A DNA stretch of 48,141 bases from a virus (Duplodnaviria; Heunggongvirae; Uroviricota; Caudoviricetes): IMG/VR virus record IMGVR_UViG_2675903658_000004. One strand, given 5' to 3'. Positions 5,169 to 47,556 of this stretch are shown piece by piece. Under the pieces are notes generated by a model, which saw only the letters and a program-made list of their open reading frames with translations, ran no database searches and was not told the DNA's origin. Both the position numbers and the translations under genes were made by a program. The number at the start of each line of letters is the position of its first letter. Position 1 is the stretch's first letter.

Positions 5169-5321
5169 TCAGTGGTTGTCATACCTGGTCTCTCTCATCT
5201 GCTTCTGCTTTCGCCACCATCATTTCCAGCTTTTGTGAAAGGGATGTGGCTAACGTATGAAATTCTTTGAACCGCCCCGGGAATCCTGGAGACTAAACTT
5301 CCTGAGAAAGAGGTAAACAGG

Positions 5322-5648
5322 ATGACTAAAAATACTCGTTTTTCCCCCGAAGTCCGTCAACGGGCAGTCCGTATGGTTCTGGAAAGTCAGAGCGAATATG
5401 ACTCACAATGGGCGACAATTTGTTCCATTGCTCCAAAGATTGGCTGTACGCCGGAGACTCTGCGTGTCTGGGTTCGCCAGCATGAGCGGGATACCGGGGG
5501 CGGTGATGGAGGGCTCACCACCGCTGAACGTCAGCGTCTGAAAGAGCTGGAACGTGAAAATCGTGAACTGCGCTGCAGTAACGATATCCTTCGCCAGGCT
5601 TCCGCTTATTTTGCGAAGGCGGAGTTCGACCGCCTCTGGAAAAAATGA
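5322..5648 (+). CDS. IS629 OrfA (HTH transposase subunit)
   Basis: 108-aa ORF with HTH and leucine-zipper-like region; ends in an A-run where orfB overlaps in the -1 frame. Confidence 0.9.
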
Positions 5649-6535
5649 TGCCACTGCTGGATAAGCTGCGTGAGCAGTACGGGGTCGGACCGCTATGCAG
5701 CGAACTGCATATTGCCCCGTCAACGTATTACCACTGTCAGCAACAGCGACATCATCCGGATAAACGCAGTGCCCGTGCGCAGCGCGATGACTGGCTGAAG
5801 AAAGAGATACAGCGCGTATACGATGAAAATCACAAGGTATACGGTGTGCGTAAAGTCTGGCGTCAGTTGTTACGGGAAGGTATCAGAGTGGCCAGATGCA
5901 CTGTGGCACGTCTCATGGCGGTTATGGGACTTGCCGGTGTTCTCCGGGGTAAAAAGGTCCGTACGACCATCAGCCGGAAAGCCGTTGCCGCAGGCGACCG
6001 CGTAAACCGTCAGTTCGTGGCAGAACGACCTGACCAGCTGTGGGTGGCTGATTTTACTTACGTCAGCACATGGCGGGGCTTCGTCTATGTGGCGTTCATC
6101 ATTGATGTGTTTGCCGGATACATCGTGGGGTGGCGGGTCTCATCGTCCATGGAAACGACATTCGTGCTGGATGCACTGGAGCAGGCGTTATGGGCCCGTC
6201 GACCGTCCGGCACGGTCCATCACAGTGATAAAGGTTCTCAGTATGTATCGCTGGCCTACACACAGCGGCTTAAGGAAGCCGGATTACTGGCATCAACAGG
6301 AAGTACAGGCGACTCGTATGACAACGCGATGGCGGAGAGCATCAATGGTCTTTACAAAGCGGAGGTAATACACCGTAAGAGCTGGAAAAACCGTGCAGAA
6401 GTGGAACTGGCCACACTCACGTGGGTGGACTGGTATAACAATCGACGATTGCTGGAAAGGCTGGGCCATACTCCTCCGGCAGAAGCAGAAAAAGCTTATT
6501 ATGCTTCCATCGGAAACGATGATCTGGCAGCCTGA
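5645..6535 (+). CDS. IS629 OrfB (DDE integrase-core transposase)
   Basis: 296-aa ORF with an rve/DDE core; -1 frame relative to orfA. Confidence 0.9.
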
Positions 6536-6655
6536 GTTCACAGATAAAACACTCTCCAGGAAACCCGGGGCGGTTCACTTCGTCTGTTTCTACTGGTATT
6601 GGCACAAACCTGACTCCAATTTGAGCAAGGCTATGTGCCATCTCAATACTCGTTC

Positions 6656-14580: not shown

Positions 14581-14727
14581 GAATTCTGGCGAATCCTCTG
14601 ACCAGCCAGAAAACGACCTTTCTGTGGTGAAACCGGATGCTGCAATTCAGAGCGGCAGCAAGTGGGGGACAGCAGAAGACCTGACTGAACCGCCCCGGGT
14701 TTCCTGGAGAGTGTTTTATCTGTGAAC

Positions 14728-15618
14728 TCAGGCTGCCAGATCATCGTTTCCGATGGAAGCATAATAAGCTTTTTCTGCTTCTGCCGGAGGAGTATGGCCC
14801 AGCCTTTCCAGCAATCGTCGATTGTTATACCAGTCCACCCACGTGAGTGTGGCCAGTTCCACTTCTGCACGGTTTTTCCAGCTCTTACGGTGTATTACCT
14901 CCGCTTTGTAAAGACCATTGATGCTCTCCGCCATCGCGTTGTCATACGAGTCGCCTGTACTTCCTGTTGATGCCAGTAATCCGGCTTCCTTAAGCCGCTG
15001 TGTGTAGGCCAGCGATACATACTGAGAACCTTTATCACTGTGATGGACCGTGCCGGACGGTCGACGGGCCCATAACGCCTGCTCCAGTGCATCCAGCACG
15101 AATGTCGTTTCCATGGACGATGAGACCCGCCACCCCACGATGTATCCGGCAAACACATCAATGATGAACGCCACATAGACGAAGCCCCGCCATGTGCTGA
15201 CGTAAGTAAAATCAGCCACCCACAGCTGGTCAGGTCGTTCTGCCACGAACTGACGGTTTACGCGGTCGCCTGCGGCAACGGCTTTCCGGCTGATGGTCGT
15301 ACGGACCTTTTTACCCCGGAGAACACCGGCAAGTCCCATAACCGCCATGAGACGTGCCACAGTGCATCTGGCCACTCTGATACCTTCCCGTAACAACTGA
15401 CGCCAGACTTTACGCACACCGTATACCTTGTGATTTTCATCGTATACGCGCTGTATCTCTTTCTTCAGCCAGTCATCGCGCTGCGCACGGGCACTGCGTT
15501 TATCCGGATGATGTCGCTGTTGCTGACAGTGGTAATACGTTGACGGGGCAATATGCAGTTCGCTGCATAGCGGTCCGACCCCGTACTGCTCACGCAGCTT
15601 ATCCAGCAGTGGCATCAT
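14728..15618 (-). CDS. IS629 OrfB transposase
   Basis: Protein identical to copy 1 OrfB. Confidence 0.9.
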
Positions 15619-15941
15619 TTTTTCCAGAGGCGGTCGAACTCCGCCTTCGCAAAATAAGCGGAAGCCTGGCGAAGGATATCGTTACTGCAGCGCAGTTCAC
15701 GATTTTCACGTTCCAGCTCTTTCAGACGCTGACGTTCAGCGGTGGTGAGCCCTCCATCACCGCCCCCGGTATCCCGCTCATGCTGGCGAACCCAGACACG
15801 CAGAGTCTCCGGCGTACAGCCAATCTTTGGAGCAATGGAACAAATTGTCGCCCATTGTGAGTCATATTCGCTCTGACTTTCCAGAACCATACGGACTGCC
15901 CGTTGACGGACTTCGGGGGAAAAACGAGTATTTTTAGTCAT
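15615..15941 (-). CDS. IS629 OrfA
   Basis: Protein identical to copy 1 OrfA. Confidence 0.9.
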
Positions 15942-16307
15942 CCTGTTTACCTCTTTCTCAGGAAGTTTAGTCTCCAGGATTCCCGGGGCGGTTCAGACCG
16001 CCGCAGAATGGATGTTTGACATGGTGAAGACCATCGCGCCATCAGCCAGAAAACCGAATTTTGCAGGGTGGGCTAACGATATCCGCCTGATGCGTGAACG
16101 TGACGGACGTAACCATCGCGACATGTGTGTACTGTTCCGCTGGGCATGCCAGGACAACTTCTGGTCCGGTAACGTGCTGAGCCCGGCCAAACTCCGCGAC
16201 AAGTGGACCCAGCTCGAAATCAACCGTAACAAGCAACAGGCAGGTGTGACAGCCTGCAAACCAAAACTCGACCTGACAAACACTGACTGGATTTACGGGG
16301 TGGATTT

Positions 16308-29367: not shown

Positions 29368-30862
29368 TCTTTCACACATTATTGCCGCAGCATTCAATGA
29401 ACCGCTGCTTCTGGAGCCCGCCTATGCGCGGGTTTTCTTTTGCGCGCTCGGGCGCGAGATGGGGGCAGCAAGTCTTTCGGTACCACAACAGCAGGTACAG
29501 TTTGATGCTCCCGGAATGCTGGCTGAAACGGACGAGTACATGGCCGGAGGTAAACGACCGGCCCGTGTTTACCGGGTGGTGAACGGTATTGCTGTACTGC
29601 CGGTGACCGGCACGCTGGTGCACCGGCTGGGTGGTATGCGGCCATTTTCCGGAATGACAGGCTATGACGGCATTGTCGCCTGTCTTCAGCAGGCAATGGC
29701 GGATAGCCAGGTGCGGGGCGTACTGCTGGACATTGACAGTCCGGGCGGGCAGGCCGCCGGCGCGTTTGACTGCGCTGACATGATTTACCGCCTCCGTCAG
29801 CAGAAGCCGGTCTGGGCACTGTGCAATGACACGGCCTGTTCTGCAGCCATGCTGCTGGCGTCGGCCTGCTCCCGACGGCTGGTTACCCAGACATCCCGTA
29901 TCGGCTCCATTGGCGTGATGATGAGCCATGTCAGCTATGCCGGTCATCTGGCGCAGGCCGGTGTGGATATCACGCTGATTTACTCAGGGGCGCACAAGGT
30001 GGATGGCAATCAGTTTGAAGCGTTGCCGGCAGAGGTTCGCCAGGACATGCAGCAGCGGATTGATGCGGCGCGCCGGATGTTTGCCGAAAAAGTGGCGATG
30101 TATACCGGTCTGTCTGTTGATGCCGTCACGGGAACAGAGGCTGCCGTTTTTGAAGGTCAGTCCGGCATTGAGGCCGGGCTGGCGGATGAATTAATCAATG
30201 CGTCGGATGCCATCAGTGTGATGGCCACGGCGCTGAACAGTAATGTCAGAGGAGGCACTATGCCGCAATTAACTGCAACGGAAGCCGCCGCGCAGGAGAA
30301 CCAGCGAGTGATGGGGATCCTGACATGCCAGGAAGCGAAAGGACGTGAACAGCTTGCCACGATGCTGGCAGGACAACAGGGCATGAGCGTTGAACAGGCC
30401 CGGGCGATTCTGGCCGCGGCGGCACCGCAGCAGCCGGTGGCATCCACGCAGAGTGAAGCCGATCGCATTATGGCGTGTGAAGAAGCGAACGGTCGTGAAC
30501 AACTGGCGGCAACGCTGGCGGCGATGCCGGAGATGACGGTGGAAAAAGCCCGCCCGATCCTGGCTGCTTCACCGCAGGCGGATGCCGGACCATCACTCCG
30601 TGATCAGATCATGGCACTGGATGAGGCAAAAGGGGCTGAGGCGCAGGCTGAACAGCTGGCTGCCTGCCCGGGAATGACAGTGGAGAGCGCCCGGGCTGTG
30701 CTGGCTGCGGGATCAGGTAAGGCAGAACCGGTCTCTGCATCCACAACCGCCATGTTTGAACATTTCATGGCGAACCATTCACCGGCAGCGGTACAGGGTG
30801 GCGTGGCACAGACGTCAGCAGACGGTGATGCGGACGTGAAAATGCTCATGGCCATGCCATGA
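29357..30862 (+). CDS. C: head maturation protease C (S49/ClpP-like) with nested Nu3-like scaffold region
   Basis: N-terminal region matches lambda gpC; C-terminal region carries three tandem copies of a scaffold-like motif. Confidence 0.85.
   Translation: MRRNLSHIIAAAFNEPLLLEPAYARVFFCALGREMGAASLSVPQQQVQFDAPGMLAETDEYMAGGKRPARVYRVVNGIAVLPVTGTLVHRLGGMRPFSGMTGYDGIVACLQQAMADSQVRGVLLDIDSPGGQAAGAFDCADMIYRLRQQKPVWALCNDTACSAAMLLASACSRRLVTQTSRIGSIGVMMSHVSYAGHLAQAGVDITLIYSGAHKVDGNQFEALPAEVRQDMQQRIDAARRMFAEKVAMYTGLSVDAVTGTEAAVFEGQSGIEAGLADELINASDAISVMATALNSNVRGGTMPQLTATEAAAQENQRVMGILTCQEAKGREQLATMLAGQQGMSVEQARAILAAAAPQQPVASTQSEADRIMACEEANGREQLAATLAAMPEMTVEKARPILAASPQADAGPSLRDQIMALDEAKGAEAQAEQLAACPGMTVESARAVLAAGSGKAEPVSASTTAMFEHFMANHSPAAVQGGVAQTSADGDADVKMLMAMP
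30305..30725 (+). repeat. three tandem in-frame repeats (about 40-50 codons each) inside the C/Nu3 region
   Basis: Protein segments MGILTCQEAKGREQLATMLAGQQGMSVEQARAILAA / IMACEEANGREQLAATLAAMPEMTVEKARPILAA / IMALDEAKGAEAQAEQLAACPGMTVESARAVLAA. Confidence 0.6.
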
Positions 30863-30898
30863 AGTCAGTGCTGACCATCAATAGGAGGTTTTTACAAT

Positions 30899-31246
30899 AT
30901 GGTGACGAAAACCATCACTGAACAGCGTGCGGAAGTACGTATTTTTGCCGGTAATGATCCGGCTCATACCGCCACAGGCAGCAGCGGGATTTCCTCGCCA
31001 ACACCGGCACTGACGCCCCTGATGCTGGATGAAGCCACCGGGAAACTGGTGGTCTGGGACGGACAGAAAGCCGGTAGTGCGGTTGGCATACTGGTACTGC
31101 CGCTTGAAGGCACAGAGACGGCGCTGACGTATTACAAGTCGGGAACCTTTGCGACGGAGGCAATCCACTGGCCTGAAAGTGTGGATGAACACAAAAAGGC
31201 CAACGCCTTTGCTGGCAGTGCCCTGAGTCACGCGGCGCTGCCGTAA
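30899..31246 (+). CDS. D: head decoration protein D
   Basis: 115-aa protein matching recalled lambda gpD. Confidence 0.9.
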   Translation: MVTKTITEQRAEVRIFAGNDPAHTATGSSGISSPTPALTPLMLDEATGKLVVWDGQKAGSAVGILVLPLEGTETALTYYKSGTFATEAIHWPESVDEHKKANAFAGSALSHAALP

Positions 31247-31303: not shown

Positions 31304-32332
31304 ATGGGATTGTTTACGACCCGCCAGTTACTCGGTTATACCGAACAAAAAGTTAAATTCCGTGCGCTGTTTCTGGAGCTGTTTTTCCGCCGTACGGTGA
31401 ATTTCCATACCGAAGAGGTGATGCTGGACAAAATTACCGGAAAAACGCCGGTGGCGGCCTATGTCTCCCCGGTTGTTGAAGGAAAAGTGCTGCGTCATCG
31501 TGGTGGTGAAACCCGCGTGTTGCGTCCGGGCTACGTCAAGCCGAAACACGAATTTAATTACCAGCAGGCGGTTGAGCGCCTTCCTGGTGAAGATCCATCT
31601 CAACTGAATGATCCGGCTTACCGCCGTCTGCGTATCATTACCGATAACCTCAAACAGGAAGAGCACGCGATTGTCCAGGTGGAAGAAATGCAGGCGGTAA
31701 ATGCTGTGTTGTATGGCAAATACACCATGGAAGGAGACCAGTTCGAGAAAATTGAGGTCGATTTTGGCAGGTCGACGAAGAATAACATCACTCAGGGTAG
31801 TGGTAAGGAGTGGTCAAAACAGGATCGTGACACGTTCGATCCTACACATGATATTGACCTCTACTGCGACCTGGCCAGCGGTCTTGTGAATATTGCCATT
31901 ATGGACGGTACCGTCTGGCGTCTTCTGAATGGTTTTAAGCTGTTCCGCGAAAAACTGGATACCCGTCGCGGTTCAAATTCTCAACTCGAAACGGCAGTGA
32001 AAGATCTGGGCGCAGTGGTGTCCTTCAAGGGGTATTACGGCGATCTGGCCATTGTGGTGGCGAAAACGTCTTATGTGGCAGAGGACGGTACCGAAAAACG
32101 TTATCTGCCGGAGGGCACACTGGTCCTGGGGAATACGGCAGCAGAGGGCATTCGTTGCTATGGTGCCATTCAGGATGCGCAGGCGTTGTCCGAAGGTGTG
32201 GTGGCCTCTTCCCGTTATCCGAAACACTGGCTGACTGTGGGCGATCCGGCCCGTGAATTCACCATGACGCAGTCCGCACCGCTGATGGTGTTGCCGGACC
32301 CGGATGAGTTTGTGGTGGTACAGGTGAAATAA
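31304..32332 (+). CDS. E: major capsid protein E
   Basis: 342-aa protein matching recalled lambda gpE. Confidence 0.95.
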   Translation: MGLFTTRQLLGYTEQKVKFRALFLELFFRRTVNFHTEEVMLDKITGKTPVAAYVSPVVEGKVLRHRGGETRVLRPGYVKPKHEFNYQQAVERLPGEDPSQLNDPAYRRLRIITDNLKQEEHAIVQVEEMQAVNAVLYGKYTMEGDQFEKIEVDFGRSTKNNITQGSGKEWSKQDRDTFDPTHDIDLYCDLASGLVNIAIMDGTVWRLLNGFKLFREKLDTRRGSNSQLETAVKDLGAVVSFKGYYGDLAIVVAKTSYVAEDGTEKRYLPEGTLVLGNTAAEGIRCYGAIQDAQALSEGVVASSRYPKHWLTVGDPAREFTMTQSAPLMVLPDPDEFVVVQVK

Positions 32333-44179: not shown

Positions 44180-46189
44180 GTGAATATGGCAGTACAGATT
44201 TCAGGCGTGCTGAAAGACGGTGCAGGAAAACCGATACAGAACTGCACCATTCAGCTCAAAGCAAAACGTAACAGCACCACGGTTGTGGTGAACACGGTGG
44301 CCTCAGAAAATCCGGATGAAGCCGGACGTTACAGCATGGATGTCGAGTATGGCCAGTACAGCGTTATCCTGCTGGTTGAAGGTTTTCCGCCTTCACATGC
44401 CGGGGCCATCACCGTGTATGAGGATTCTAAGCCGGGGACATTGAATGATTTTCTGGGCGCTGCAACAGAAGATGATGTTCGTCCGGAGGCACTGTATCGT
44501 TTTGAAAAGATGGTGGAAGAGGTGGCACGCAACGCTGAAGCCGCCTCTCAGAGCGCAGCGGCAGCAAAGAAATCAGAAACAGCAGCGGCATCGTCCAGGA
44601 ATGCGGCGAAAACATCAGAGACGAATGCAGGTAACAGCGCGAAAGCGGCAGCTTCTTCAAAAACAGCCGCACAAAACGCAGCAACAGCGGCAGAACGTTC
44701 AGAGACAAATGCCCGTGCGTCAGAAGAAGCCTCCGCAGACAGTGAAGAGGCTTCCCGCCGTAATGCAGAGTCAGCCGCTGAAAATGCCGGAGTCGCCACC
44801 ACAAAAGCGCGGGAGGCCGCAGCAGACGCAACAAAGGCCGGGCAGAAAAAGGATGAGGCTCTGTCGGCAGCGACACGGGCTGAAAAGGCGGCAGACCGCG
44901 CAGAAGTCGCAGCGGAAGTGACTGCAGAGCCCTATGCGAATATAGTGCCGCCGCTGCCTGATGTGTGGATACCGTTTAACGATTCACTGGATATGATTGC
45001 GGGTTTTTCTCCGGGCTATAAAAAAATAGCTATTGGTGACGATGTGGTTCAGGTCGCCAGTGATAAACAGGTTAATTTCAGTCGCGCATCAACGGCAACA
45101 TATATCAACAAATCTGGCGAACTGAAAACGGCGGAAATTAATGAGCCGCGATTTGAGTGTGATGGCCTGCTTATTGAGGGACAAAGAACGAACTACATGC
45201 TCAATTCGGAAAGTCCAGCCAGCTGGGGGAAGTCATCAAACATGGATGTGCCCGAAACCGGGACAGATAGTTTTGGTTTTACTTATGGAAAGTTTGTCTG
45301 CAACGATTCTCTGGTTGGGCAAACTTCGGCTATTAATATGGCATCAATTGCTGCAACAAAGTCAGTTGATGTCTCAGGCGATAACAAGTACGTGACAACC
45401 TCATGCCGTTTTAAAACAGAACGACAGGTAAGGTTACGTATACGGTTTGATAAGTATGATGGTAGTGCAACAACTTTTCTTGGCGATGCGTACATTGATA
45501 CGCAAACGCTTGAAATTAATATGACAGGTGGGGCTGCCGGCAGAATTACGGCACGAGTCAGGAAGGATAAGACCACAGGCTGGATTTTTGCAGAGGCAAC
45601 GATTCAGGCAATTGATGGTGAGTTAAAAATAGGCTCTCAGATACAGTATTCTCCTGAGCGGGGTGGGGCAACAGTATCTGGTGACTATATTTATCTTGCC
45701 ACCCCACAAGTAGAGAATGGGCCGTGTGTATCATCATTTATTATTTCAGGAGGCAGCGCAACGACAAGAGCCAGTGATTTGGTTAGTATCCCCACCAGAA
45801 ATAATCTTTATAAGTTACCATTTACTTTTTTACTTGAGATTCATAAAAACTGGGATATTGCACCAAACGCCGCACCCCGCGTGTGGGATATAGCAGCAGC
45901 CAATACCGGGCAATCAGCAATTGCAGCAATCAACAGAGGTAGTGGTAAGTTATATATGAGTCTGTCAAACCCTTCAGGCTTGTATGTTAATAGCGCAGCG
46001 ACAGATGTATTTGCAGAGAAAACCACATTTGGATGTATTGCAAAAGCTGATGGTCACTTTCATGTGGTGACAAATGGTAAAGCGGTTAATGAAGTTTATT
46101 GTGAATATAATGGTGTGACCGCTGATAAAAATATCCGATTTGGAGGGCAGACGAATACTGGAGAACGACATCTGTTTGGCCATATTTGA
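44180..46189 (+). CDS. stf: side tail fiber protein (Stf-like N-terminus, distinct C-terminal domain); last 20 codons displaced by IS629 copy 3
   Basis: N-terminus MAVQISGVLKDGAGKPIQNCTIQLKAKRNSTTVVVNTV... matches lambda Stf; Ala/Ser-rich repeats; the ORF's stop TGA is the first three bases of the IS629 terminus. Confidence 0.85.
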   Translation: MNMAVQISGVLKDGAGKPIQNCTIQLKAKRNSTTVVVNTVASENPDEAGRYSMDVEYGQYSVILLVEGFPPSHAGAITVYEDSKPGTLNDFLGAATEDDVRPEALYRFEKMVEEVARNAEAASQSAAAAKKSETAAASSRNAAKTSETNAGNSAKAAASSKTAAQNAATAAERSETNARASEEASADSEEASRRNAESAAENAGVATTKAREAAADATKAGQKKDEALSAATRAEKAADRAEVAAEVTAEPYANIVPPLPDVWIPFNDSLDMIAGFSPGYKKIAIGDDVVQVASDKQVNFSRASTATYINKSGELKTAEINEPRFECDGLLIEGQRTNYMLNSESPASWGKSSNMDVPETGTDSFGFTYGKFVCNDSLVGQTSAINMASIAATKSVDVSGDNKYVTTSCRFKTERQVRLRIRFDKYDGSATTFLGDAYIDTQTLEINMTGGAAGRITARVRKDKTTGWIFAEATIQAIDGELKIGSQIQYSPERGGATVSGDYIYLATPQVENGPCVSSFIISGGSATTRASDLVSIPTRNNLYKLPFTFLLEIHKNWDIAPNAAPRVWDIAAANTGQSAIAAINRGSGKLYMSLSNPSGLYVNSAATDVFAEKTTFGCIAKADGHFHVVTNGKAVNEVYCEYNGVTADKNIRFGGQTNTGERHLFGHI

Positions 46190-46240
46190 ACCGCCCCGGG
46201 AATCCTGGAGACTAAACTTCCTGAGAAAGAGGTAAACAGG

Positions 46241-46567
46241 ATGACTAAAAATACTCGTTTTTCCCCCGAAGTCCGTCAACGGGCAGTCCGTATGGTTCTG
46301 GAAAGTCAGAGCGAATATGACTCACAATGGGCGACAATTTGTTCCATTGCTCCAAAGATTGGCTGTACGCCGGAGACTCTGCGTGTCTGGGTTCGCCAGC
46401 ATGAGCGGGATACCGGGGGCGGTGATGGAGGGCTCACCACCGCTGAACGTCAGCGTCTGAAAGAGCTGGAACGTGAAAATCGTGAACTGCGCTGCAGTAA
46501 CGATATCCTTCGCCAGGCTTCCGCTTATTTTGCGAAGGCGGAGTTCGACCGCCTCTGGAAAAAATGA
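46241..46567 (+). CDS. IS629 OrfA
   Basis: Protein identical to copy 1 OrfA. Confidence 0.9.
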
Positions 46568-47454
46568 TGCCACTGCTGGATAAGCTGCGTGAGCAGTACG
46601 GGGTCGGACCGCTATGCAGCGAACTGCATATTGCCCCGTCAACGTATTACCACTGTCAGCAACAGCGACATCATCCGGATAAACGCAGTGCCCGTGCGCA
46701 GCGCGATGACTGGCTGAAGAAAGAGATACAGCGCGTATACGATGAAAATCACAAGGTATACGGTGTGCGTAAAGTCTGGCGTCAGTTGTTACGGGAAGGT
46801 ATCAGAGTGGCCAGATGCACTGTGGCACGTCTCATGGCGGTTATGGGACTTGCCGGTGTTCTCCGGGGTAAAAAGGTCCGTACGACCATCAGCCGGAAAG
46901 CCGTTGCCGCAGGCGACCGCGTAAACCGTCAGTTCGTGGCAGAACGACCTGACCAGCTGTGGGTGGCTGATTTTACTTACGTCAGCACATGGCGGGGCTT
47001 CGTCTATGTGGCGTTCATCATTGATGTGTTTGCCGGATACATCGTGGGGTGGCGGGTCTCATCGTCCATGGAAACGACATTCGTGCTGGATGCACTGGAG
47101 CAGGCGTTATGGGCCCGTCGACCGTCCGGCACGGTCCATCACAGTGATAAAGGTTCTCAGTATGTATCGCTGGCCTACACACAGCGGCTTAAGGAAGCCG
47201 GATTACTGGCATCAACAGGAAGTACAGGCGACTCGTATGACAACGCGATGGCGGAGAGCATCAATGGTCTTTACAAAGCGGAGGTAATACACCGTAAGAG
47301 CTGGAAAAACCGTGCAGAAGTGGAACTGGCCACACTCACGTGGGTGGACTGGTATAACAATCGACGATTGCTGGAAAGGCTGGGCCATACTCCTCCGGCA
47401 GAAGCAGAAAAAGCTTATTATGCTTCCATCGGAAACGATGATCTGGCAGCCTGA
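46564..47454 (+). CDS. IS629 OrfB transposase
   Basis: Protein identical to copy 1 OrfB. Confidence 0.9.
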
Positions 47455-47556
47455 GTTCACAGATAAAACACTCTCCAGGAAACCCGGGGCGGTTCATATT
47501 CGCAATTTCCGCATATGGCATAAAGAATTAAATGACAGGCAATTAAAAGAGGTCGT

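Follow-up and report, generated by a model that had tools for sequence, protein, structure and literature searches.

In a window of 48,141 nucleotides from a Caudoviricetes virus (IMG/VR virus record IMGVR_UViG_2675903658_000004), we find that a head maturation protease gene of the lambda gpC type (gp5) and the Nu3-like scaffolding gene nested in its 3' part (gp6) contain three tandem copies of a unit of ∼45 amino acids. Because the same triplication is already known from coliphage 21, where the copies are recorded as Tri boxes, the observation is correct but ordinary. We consider it probable (at roughly 0.8) that the locus encodes a protease/scaffold pair of the phage 21 type, in which three contact modules, derived from two old duplications, make a multivalent scaffold for a lambda-like head.

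The three copies were delimited with a profile hidden Markov model (HMM) built from the copies themselves and then searched on the protein. The initial annotation had placed three tandem, in-frame copies of a motif at 30305-30725, and this is confirmed by the HMM-defined units, which span 30296-30724 and give the same consensus (IMACxEAKGREQLAxxLAAxPGMTVExARAILAA). All three units are in the gpC frame, with start-to-start spacings of 159 and 141 nt; short Pro/Gln/Ala/Ser linkers connect them, and a 45-residue tail comes after the last unit (Table 1). Within the 200-residue scaffold protein, the best 30-residue BLOSUM62 diagonals scored 89, 78, and 77 at offsets of 50, 47, and 97, respectively. 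When the same 200 residues were shuffled 1000 times, the best scores had a mean of 29.8, a standard deviation of 5.1, and a maximum of 52; because the shuffled scores are far lower, the repeat signal is not an effect of Ala-rich composition.

The copies have diverged, as had been claimed at the outset, and result neither from recent duplication nor from an artefact of assembly. Between units, identity is 39-53% for protein and 52-66% for DNA, and in pairs of units only 8-11 of the 19-25 columns with identical residues use the same codon. Further, neither Tandem Repeats Finder nor a DNA repeat search on 30000-31000 returned a meaningful DNA repeat. Taken together, the low DNA identity, the scrambled codons, and the lack of a DNA repeat indicate that the copies are old and have been conserved as protein.

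On sequence criteria, the open reading frame (ORF) that contains the repeats is a lambda gpC/Nu3-type S49 prohead protease, with an S49 domain, the aligned Ser and Lys residues, an internal start, and the corresponding gene position. It matches the head maturation protease family phrog_53 of PHROGs over residues 1-501 of its 501 residues (E 2.8e-229). In the alignment, Ser162 (29840-29842; within CSAA) corresponds to Ser166 of lambda gpC, which is reportedly the catalytic residue, and Lys214 (29996-29998; within HKVDG) corresponds to Lys218. The nested start consists of AGGAGG, 4 nt, and an ATG at 30260 in the gpC frame, and the predicted product is the C terminus of the protease. A gene 6 or scaffolding protein is annotated at the position of this nested ORF in both M81255 and OL657228, and phrog_8399, a head scaffolding protein profile of 131 positions, matches three stretches of gp6. 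All three repeats lie within the portion common to the long (gp5) and short (gp6) products.

Comparison of the gene with phage records by megablast revealed 100% identity to ev017 and PhiR57_1 and 99.9% identity to phage 21 (M81255.1 and OL657228.1). The evidence for a prior description is the feature table of M81255 ("Bacteriophage 21 head gene operon"), which lists gene 5, a nested gene 6 that has a ribosome-binding site (RBS) of its own, and three repeat regions inside gene 6, called "Tri1 box", "Tri box", and "Tri3 box" and described as "function unknown; putative". These boxes (L001 2471-2574, 2611-2721, and 2752-2865) correspond to 30327-30430, 30467-30577, and 30608-30721 of the window and lie inside the HMM-defined units. 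We take the source paper of this record to be Smith and Feiss 1993 (Gene 126:1).

The 603-base scaffold region is covered to at least 80% in 1864 of the 5426 complete Escherichia coli genomes, including Nissle 1917 (100%) and O157:H7 strains (98.7%). Matches to the scaffold protein occur in 113 records of the phage collection, of which only 20 reach a coverage of at least 80%, and these are the 21-like set and Gifsy-1; in lambda, 434, HK629/630, the Stx1 phages, and N15, the match spans one unit only. The suggestion that lambda has a single copy was borne out by profile comparison, which found one unit in lambda gpC (residues 357-400) and not three; with two different profiles, N15 gp5 and phi80 gp5 also have one unit each, and phage 21 gp5 and Gifsy-1 STM2605 have three units each. 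The triplication sets the gene apart from lambda, N15, and phi80 but is not unusual, being present in phage 21, Gifsy-1, and about one-third of complete E. coli genomes.

To place the unit in a wider family, the profile of the three units was compared with 1.84 billion representative proteins, of which 461 matched at E≤0.001. Among the best 150 of these 461, the unit is located near the C terminus of phage S49 prohead proteases, and 54 of the 55 full-length proteins (at least 380 residues) have exactly one unit, which starts at residue 346 and is followed by 48.5 residues (medians of the 54 single-unit relatives). Judged from these profile matches, the module is a domain that occurs widely among S49 prohead proteases and for which Pfam-A and NCBIfam hold no model. 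Proteins with several units are confined to the neighbourhood of the query, plus a more distant 505-residue protein with three units (P0214), a Nu3-like protein of 195 residues with three units (P0213), and P0254. The last of these, a distant Nu3-like protein of 198 residues in the representative library, contains a pair of units more closely related to each other than to any other unit, which points to an independent duplication in another lineage.

In a neighbour-joining tree, unit 1 of every triple protein clusters together, adjoining the single units of lambda, N15, and phi80, whereas units 2 and 3 form a separate group and, within the set of 21, Gifsy-1, and P0046, sort by position. A three-residue shortening of helix 1 is common to units 2 and 3. 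The simplest history would be that an ancestral unit was duplicated once and the derived copy was then duplicated again, with unit 1 keeping the ancestral form. Both duplications would predate the divergence of the E. coli version from the Salmonella version; identity between the two is only 54-63% today.

Copy number varies among close homologues that are 82-96% identical to the query (the cluster counts are not population frequencies). Proteins of 451 residues (P0175) have two units, one of them a unit 1/unit 2 hybrid with the junction EA|NGREQLA, and a 472-residue protein (P0201) has a unit 1/unit 2 hybrid with another junction. Proteins of 482 residues (P0131), found on at least 1000 contigs, have ∼2.5 units because a 19-residue deletion removes helix 3 of unit 2, and proteins of 551 residues (P0094/P0095) have four units with the junction PGMT|EMT. 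A singleton of 657 residues (P0093) has ∼5.5 units arising from a larger internal duplication, which may be artefactual or very recent. The junctions of the variants lie inside conserved repeat segments (EA|NGREQLA, LAA|AP, and PGMT|EMT) and look like the result of unequal recombination within the repeats. We regard it as quite unlikely that the copy number (1, 2, ∼2.5, 3, or 4) is an adaptive setting of valency that is reset by such recombination; if it were, the setting might adjust how procapsids nucleate, how faithfully they assemble, or how much protease is packaged.

We also predicted the structure of the unit. AlphaFold2 (AF2) modelling of unit 1 alone (30284-30442), with 96 diverse units aligned, gave three helices (residues 2-13, 22-29, and 36-45) with a predicted local distance difference test (pLDDT) of 92 and a predicted template modelling (pTM) score of 0.73. 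A single unit is thus confidently modelled as a three-helix bundle, and each copy is predicted to fold independently. A matching fold is present in BFVD models of S49 prohead proteases (TM scores of 0.85-0.92, normalised to the query). In the 96-unit alignment, I12, E17, A18, G20, R21, A25, L28, A29, and A39 are nearly invariant and L43 is invariant, a set made up mostly of a small-residue core and the EAKGRE loop. In the E. coli 21-type protein, as in the window, unit 3 has Ala at the position of R21 (EAKGAE in place of EAKGRE; G-A-E codons at 30635-30643), whereas unit 3 of Gifsy-1 retains GRE, and the loss of R21 may reflect a relaxed or changed constraint on this unit.

Modelling of the whole 200-residue gp6 with 13 homologues gave a helix-loop-helix-turn-helix in each unit at low confidence (pLDDT 58, pTM 0.23), with no confident packing between units, and this model was not used in fold searches. 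In the same model, the tail has low-confidence helices at Nu3 residues 160-173 and 190-197; its columns F166 and M170 are conserved in a 13-sequence alignment. A sequence search of the Protein Data Bank with the 200-residue scaffold returned nothing, the best hit being a ribosomal protein with E 1.3. Matches to the helix-hairpin-helix family PF00633 (unit 3 only; 13.0-15.2 bits against a cutoff of 24) and to DUF7178, T2SSK, and Asparaginase_C were below threshold and were rejected.

With regard to binding partners and to the effect of valency, we infer that each unit would be a protein-protein contact element linking scaffold molecules to each other. The protease, which carries the same sequence, would be co-assembled into the procapsid core via the same contacts, and the C-terminal tail would be a candidate coat-binding end, probably contacting the coat protein. 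Three modules would make a longer, multivalent scaffold that nevertheless builds a lambda-like head, and the S49 protease would degrade the scaffold after assembly. Because the protease contains the entire scaffold sequence, a scaffold-contact module would also explain how the few protease molecules enter the core. The interactions published for lambda (C-Nu3, Nu3-Nu3, Nu3-E, and Nu3-B; PMC3224144) fit a contact module common to the protease and the scaffold.

Several points weigh against this interpretation. The conservation of nearly all invariant positions (I12, A18, G20, A25, L28, A29, A39, and L43) is explicable by fold stability alone and marks out no binding surface. The neighbour-joining tree, which was drawn from ∼50 columns and lacks bootstrap support, is no more than indicative. 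Variants with 2, ∼2.5, and 4 units occur, and three-fold valency is not clearly selected. Finally, lambda gpNu3 is called intrinsically disordered in the title of Medina 2011, as cited in PMC11922011, and, taken in isolation, the predicted bundle may have no more than marginal stability.

The main rival explanation is that each unit is itself a coat protein-binding element, like the C-terminal helix-turn-helix of P22, so that one scaffold molecule with a triple unit would engage as many as three capsid subunits. A scaffold helix-turn-helix binds coat protein in P22 and is proposed to do so in phi29 (PMC11922011), a two-hybrid interaction between Nu3 and E has been reported in lambda (PMC3224144), and the unit has a conserved charged loop, EAKGRE. 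The coat-binding element of scaffolds in other phages is usually terminal, as in P22 (PMC11922011), and the unit in the window is internal and repeated, unlike the single C-terminal element of P22 gp8. We consider coat binding by the units doubtful, albeit worth serious attention.

A weaker rival, and an unlikely one, is that the extra units are redundant or a near-neutral spacer whose copy number drifts by unequal recombination. The close relatives with two units, a truncated unit 2, or four units, all with junctions in conserved segments, would fit such drift, as would the distance between the S49 domain and unit 1, which is ∼18 residues in three-unit proteins compared with ∼55 in lambda. 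However, all three units are recognisable and in register across the diverged versions from E. coli and Salmonella, an argument for purifying selection acting on every unit, and three full units are present in every isolated phage record of this head type.

It is very improbable that the repeats are DNA-level signals ("boxes" or CII-binding sites) and not protein modules. OL657228 does annotate two minus-strand matches to TTGYN6TTGY in gene 6 as CII binding sites (window 30265-30278 and 30499-30512), but this pattern occurs 9 times in the window compared with 11 expected by chance, and the annotation is therefore probably spurious. Moreover, conservation is at the amino acid level, with scrambled codons and no DNA tandem repeat, and the protein motif of the unit is present in hundreds of distant S49 proteases. 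A recent duplication, an assembly artefact, or chance similarity, for which the Ala/Gln/Glu-rich composition of the region and the odd singleton P0093 might speak, is excluded by the divergence of the units, the shuffle control, and the identical structure in independent phage isolates and the 1864 complete genomes.

The initial annotation further proposed that extra scaffold repeats could alter procapsid assembly, for which we find no support. The major capsid protein has 342 residues compared with 341 in lambda and is 62% identical to it, and the genome sizes of three-unit phages (42.9-54.4 kb) and one-unit phages (∼41.6-51.1 kb) overlap; there is no sign of a changed capsid. The occurrence of 2, ∼2.5, and 4 units in close relatives suggests that the exact number is not critical. 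Overall, because the phage 21 operon record is decades old and the gene is so common in E. coli, the discovery value is small, and what is added to the prior annotation is modest: a predicted fold, a single-copy rule that applies family-wide, an order for the duplications, and natural variants in copy number. In practical terms, natural variants with 2-4 units, together with the fold model, offer a genetic handle on the contacts of a lambda-type scaffold with itself, the coat, and the protease. Hybrids between lambda and 21 would be suited to such genetics, and those with 21 head genes are viable.

The coordinates of the features are collected in Table 1. The gp5 ORF starts just before the portal gene ends, so that the two overlap. 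The gene order is portal, C/Nu3, D-like, E-like, with gp5 flanked by the portal gene on one side and by the decoration and major capsid genes on the other.

Table 1. Features of the protease/scaffold gene and the neighbouring head genes (positions in the window)
Feature	Position	Strand	Remarks
gp5/gpC-like head maturation protease with C-terminal scaffold domain	29357..30862	+	501 aa; GTG start; from ORF list
Peptidase S49 domain, residues 146-293	29792..30235	+	Pfam PF01343; E 3.7e-35; 121.6 bits against a cutoff of 24.9
Shine-Dalgarno AGGAGG of nested scaffold gene	30249..30255	+	cagAGGAGGcact then ATG; RBS annotated in both phage 21 records
gp6/Nu3-like scaffolding protein, nested in frame in gene 5	30260..30862	+	200 aa; in-frame ATG at C residue 302
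Repeat unit 1, residues 314-359	30296..30433	+	Profile HMM match 82.8 bits; ancestral-type, long first helix
Repeat unit 2, residues 367-408	30455..30580	+	HMM 84.5 bits; first helix three residues shorter, as in unit 3
Repeat unit 3, residues 414-456	30596..30724	+	HMM 83.0 bits; most diverged; GAE instead of GRE
C-terminal tail of gp5/gp6, residues 457-501	30725..30859	+	Conserved F..FM and D..LLM..P motifs
Portal-like gene	27745..29367		540 aa; 61% identical to lambda B
D-like decoration gene	30899..31246		115 aa; 58% identical to lambda D
E-like major capsid gene	31304..32332		342 aa; 62% identical to lambda E

Elsewhere in the window, positions 1-25000 show a prophage order with the integrase first and, going by how the matching phages PhiR57_1 and ev017 are annotated, include an OmpD/NmpC-type porin gene. 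Three 100% identical copies of a 1310-bp IS3-family insertion sequence (IS), which looks like IS629, are present at 5268-6577 (+), 14686-15995 (-), and 46187-47496 (+). The copies each comprise orfA (108 aa) and orfB (296 aa) and terminate in inverted repeats (TGAACCGCCCCGGG...), and the target duplications are of 3-4 bp (CTT, GAC, and (T)ATT). Compared with PhiR57_1, which is otherwise 100% identical, IS copy A is inserted in orf63, and replication gene O is disrupted by copy B; the window looks like an IS-riddled prophage version of PhiR57_1 and is probably replication-defective.

Among known systems, the closest are genes 5 and 6 of coliphage 21 (head-tail preconnector gp5 and scaffold gp6), whose 99.9% nucleotide identity extends over 1506 bases and which have the same gene 6 start and RBS. 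In unit 2, a single residue distinguishes M81255 (IMVCEE) from the gene described here (IMACEE), and the genome around the head genes is of the PhiR57_1/ev017 type and not phage 21 itself. STM2605 of Gifsy-1, a Salmonella gpC homologue of 498 residues, has three units in the same order and register, although its scaffold part is only 54% identical.

In P22 scaffolding protein gp8 and other helical phage scaffolds, a small helical module is likewise part of an internal scaffold that is transient, and these proteins are plausible only as functional analogues for the protein contacts made as the procapsid assembles (PMC11922011); no sequence or fold match to them was found, nor structural similarity to the solved C-terminal domain of the P22 scaffold. 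Also counted among the closest known systems are the staphylococcal protein A/affibody and GA modules, which are tandem three-helix-bundle domains.

The lambda gpC/gpNu3 pair, as well as gp5/gp6 of N15 and gp5 of phi80, resembles the locus described here in having an S49 protease with an in-frame nested scaffold, the same gene order, and a unit followed by the tail, and lambda gpC is 53% identical to gp5. In the lambda record NC_001416 (L003), the nu3 coding sequence is annotated from 5132 (201 aa), a start without a Shine-Dalgarno sequence, whereas the ATG at 5342 (MTKETQ, 131 aa) has GGAGG upstream and corresponds to the gene 6 start of phage 21 and to 30260 of the window; the RefSeq/GenBank annotation of lambda nu3 is thus probably too long. 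Nu3 has 131-137 residues in the lambda type compared with 200 here, and the lambda type has ∼50 Ser/Thr/Ala/Gln-rich residues ahead of its single unit, compared with ∼10 residues ahead of the first of the three units in the 21 type.
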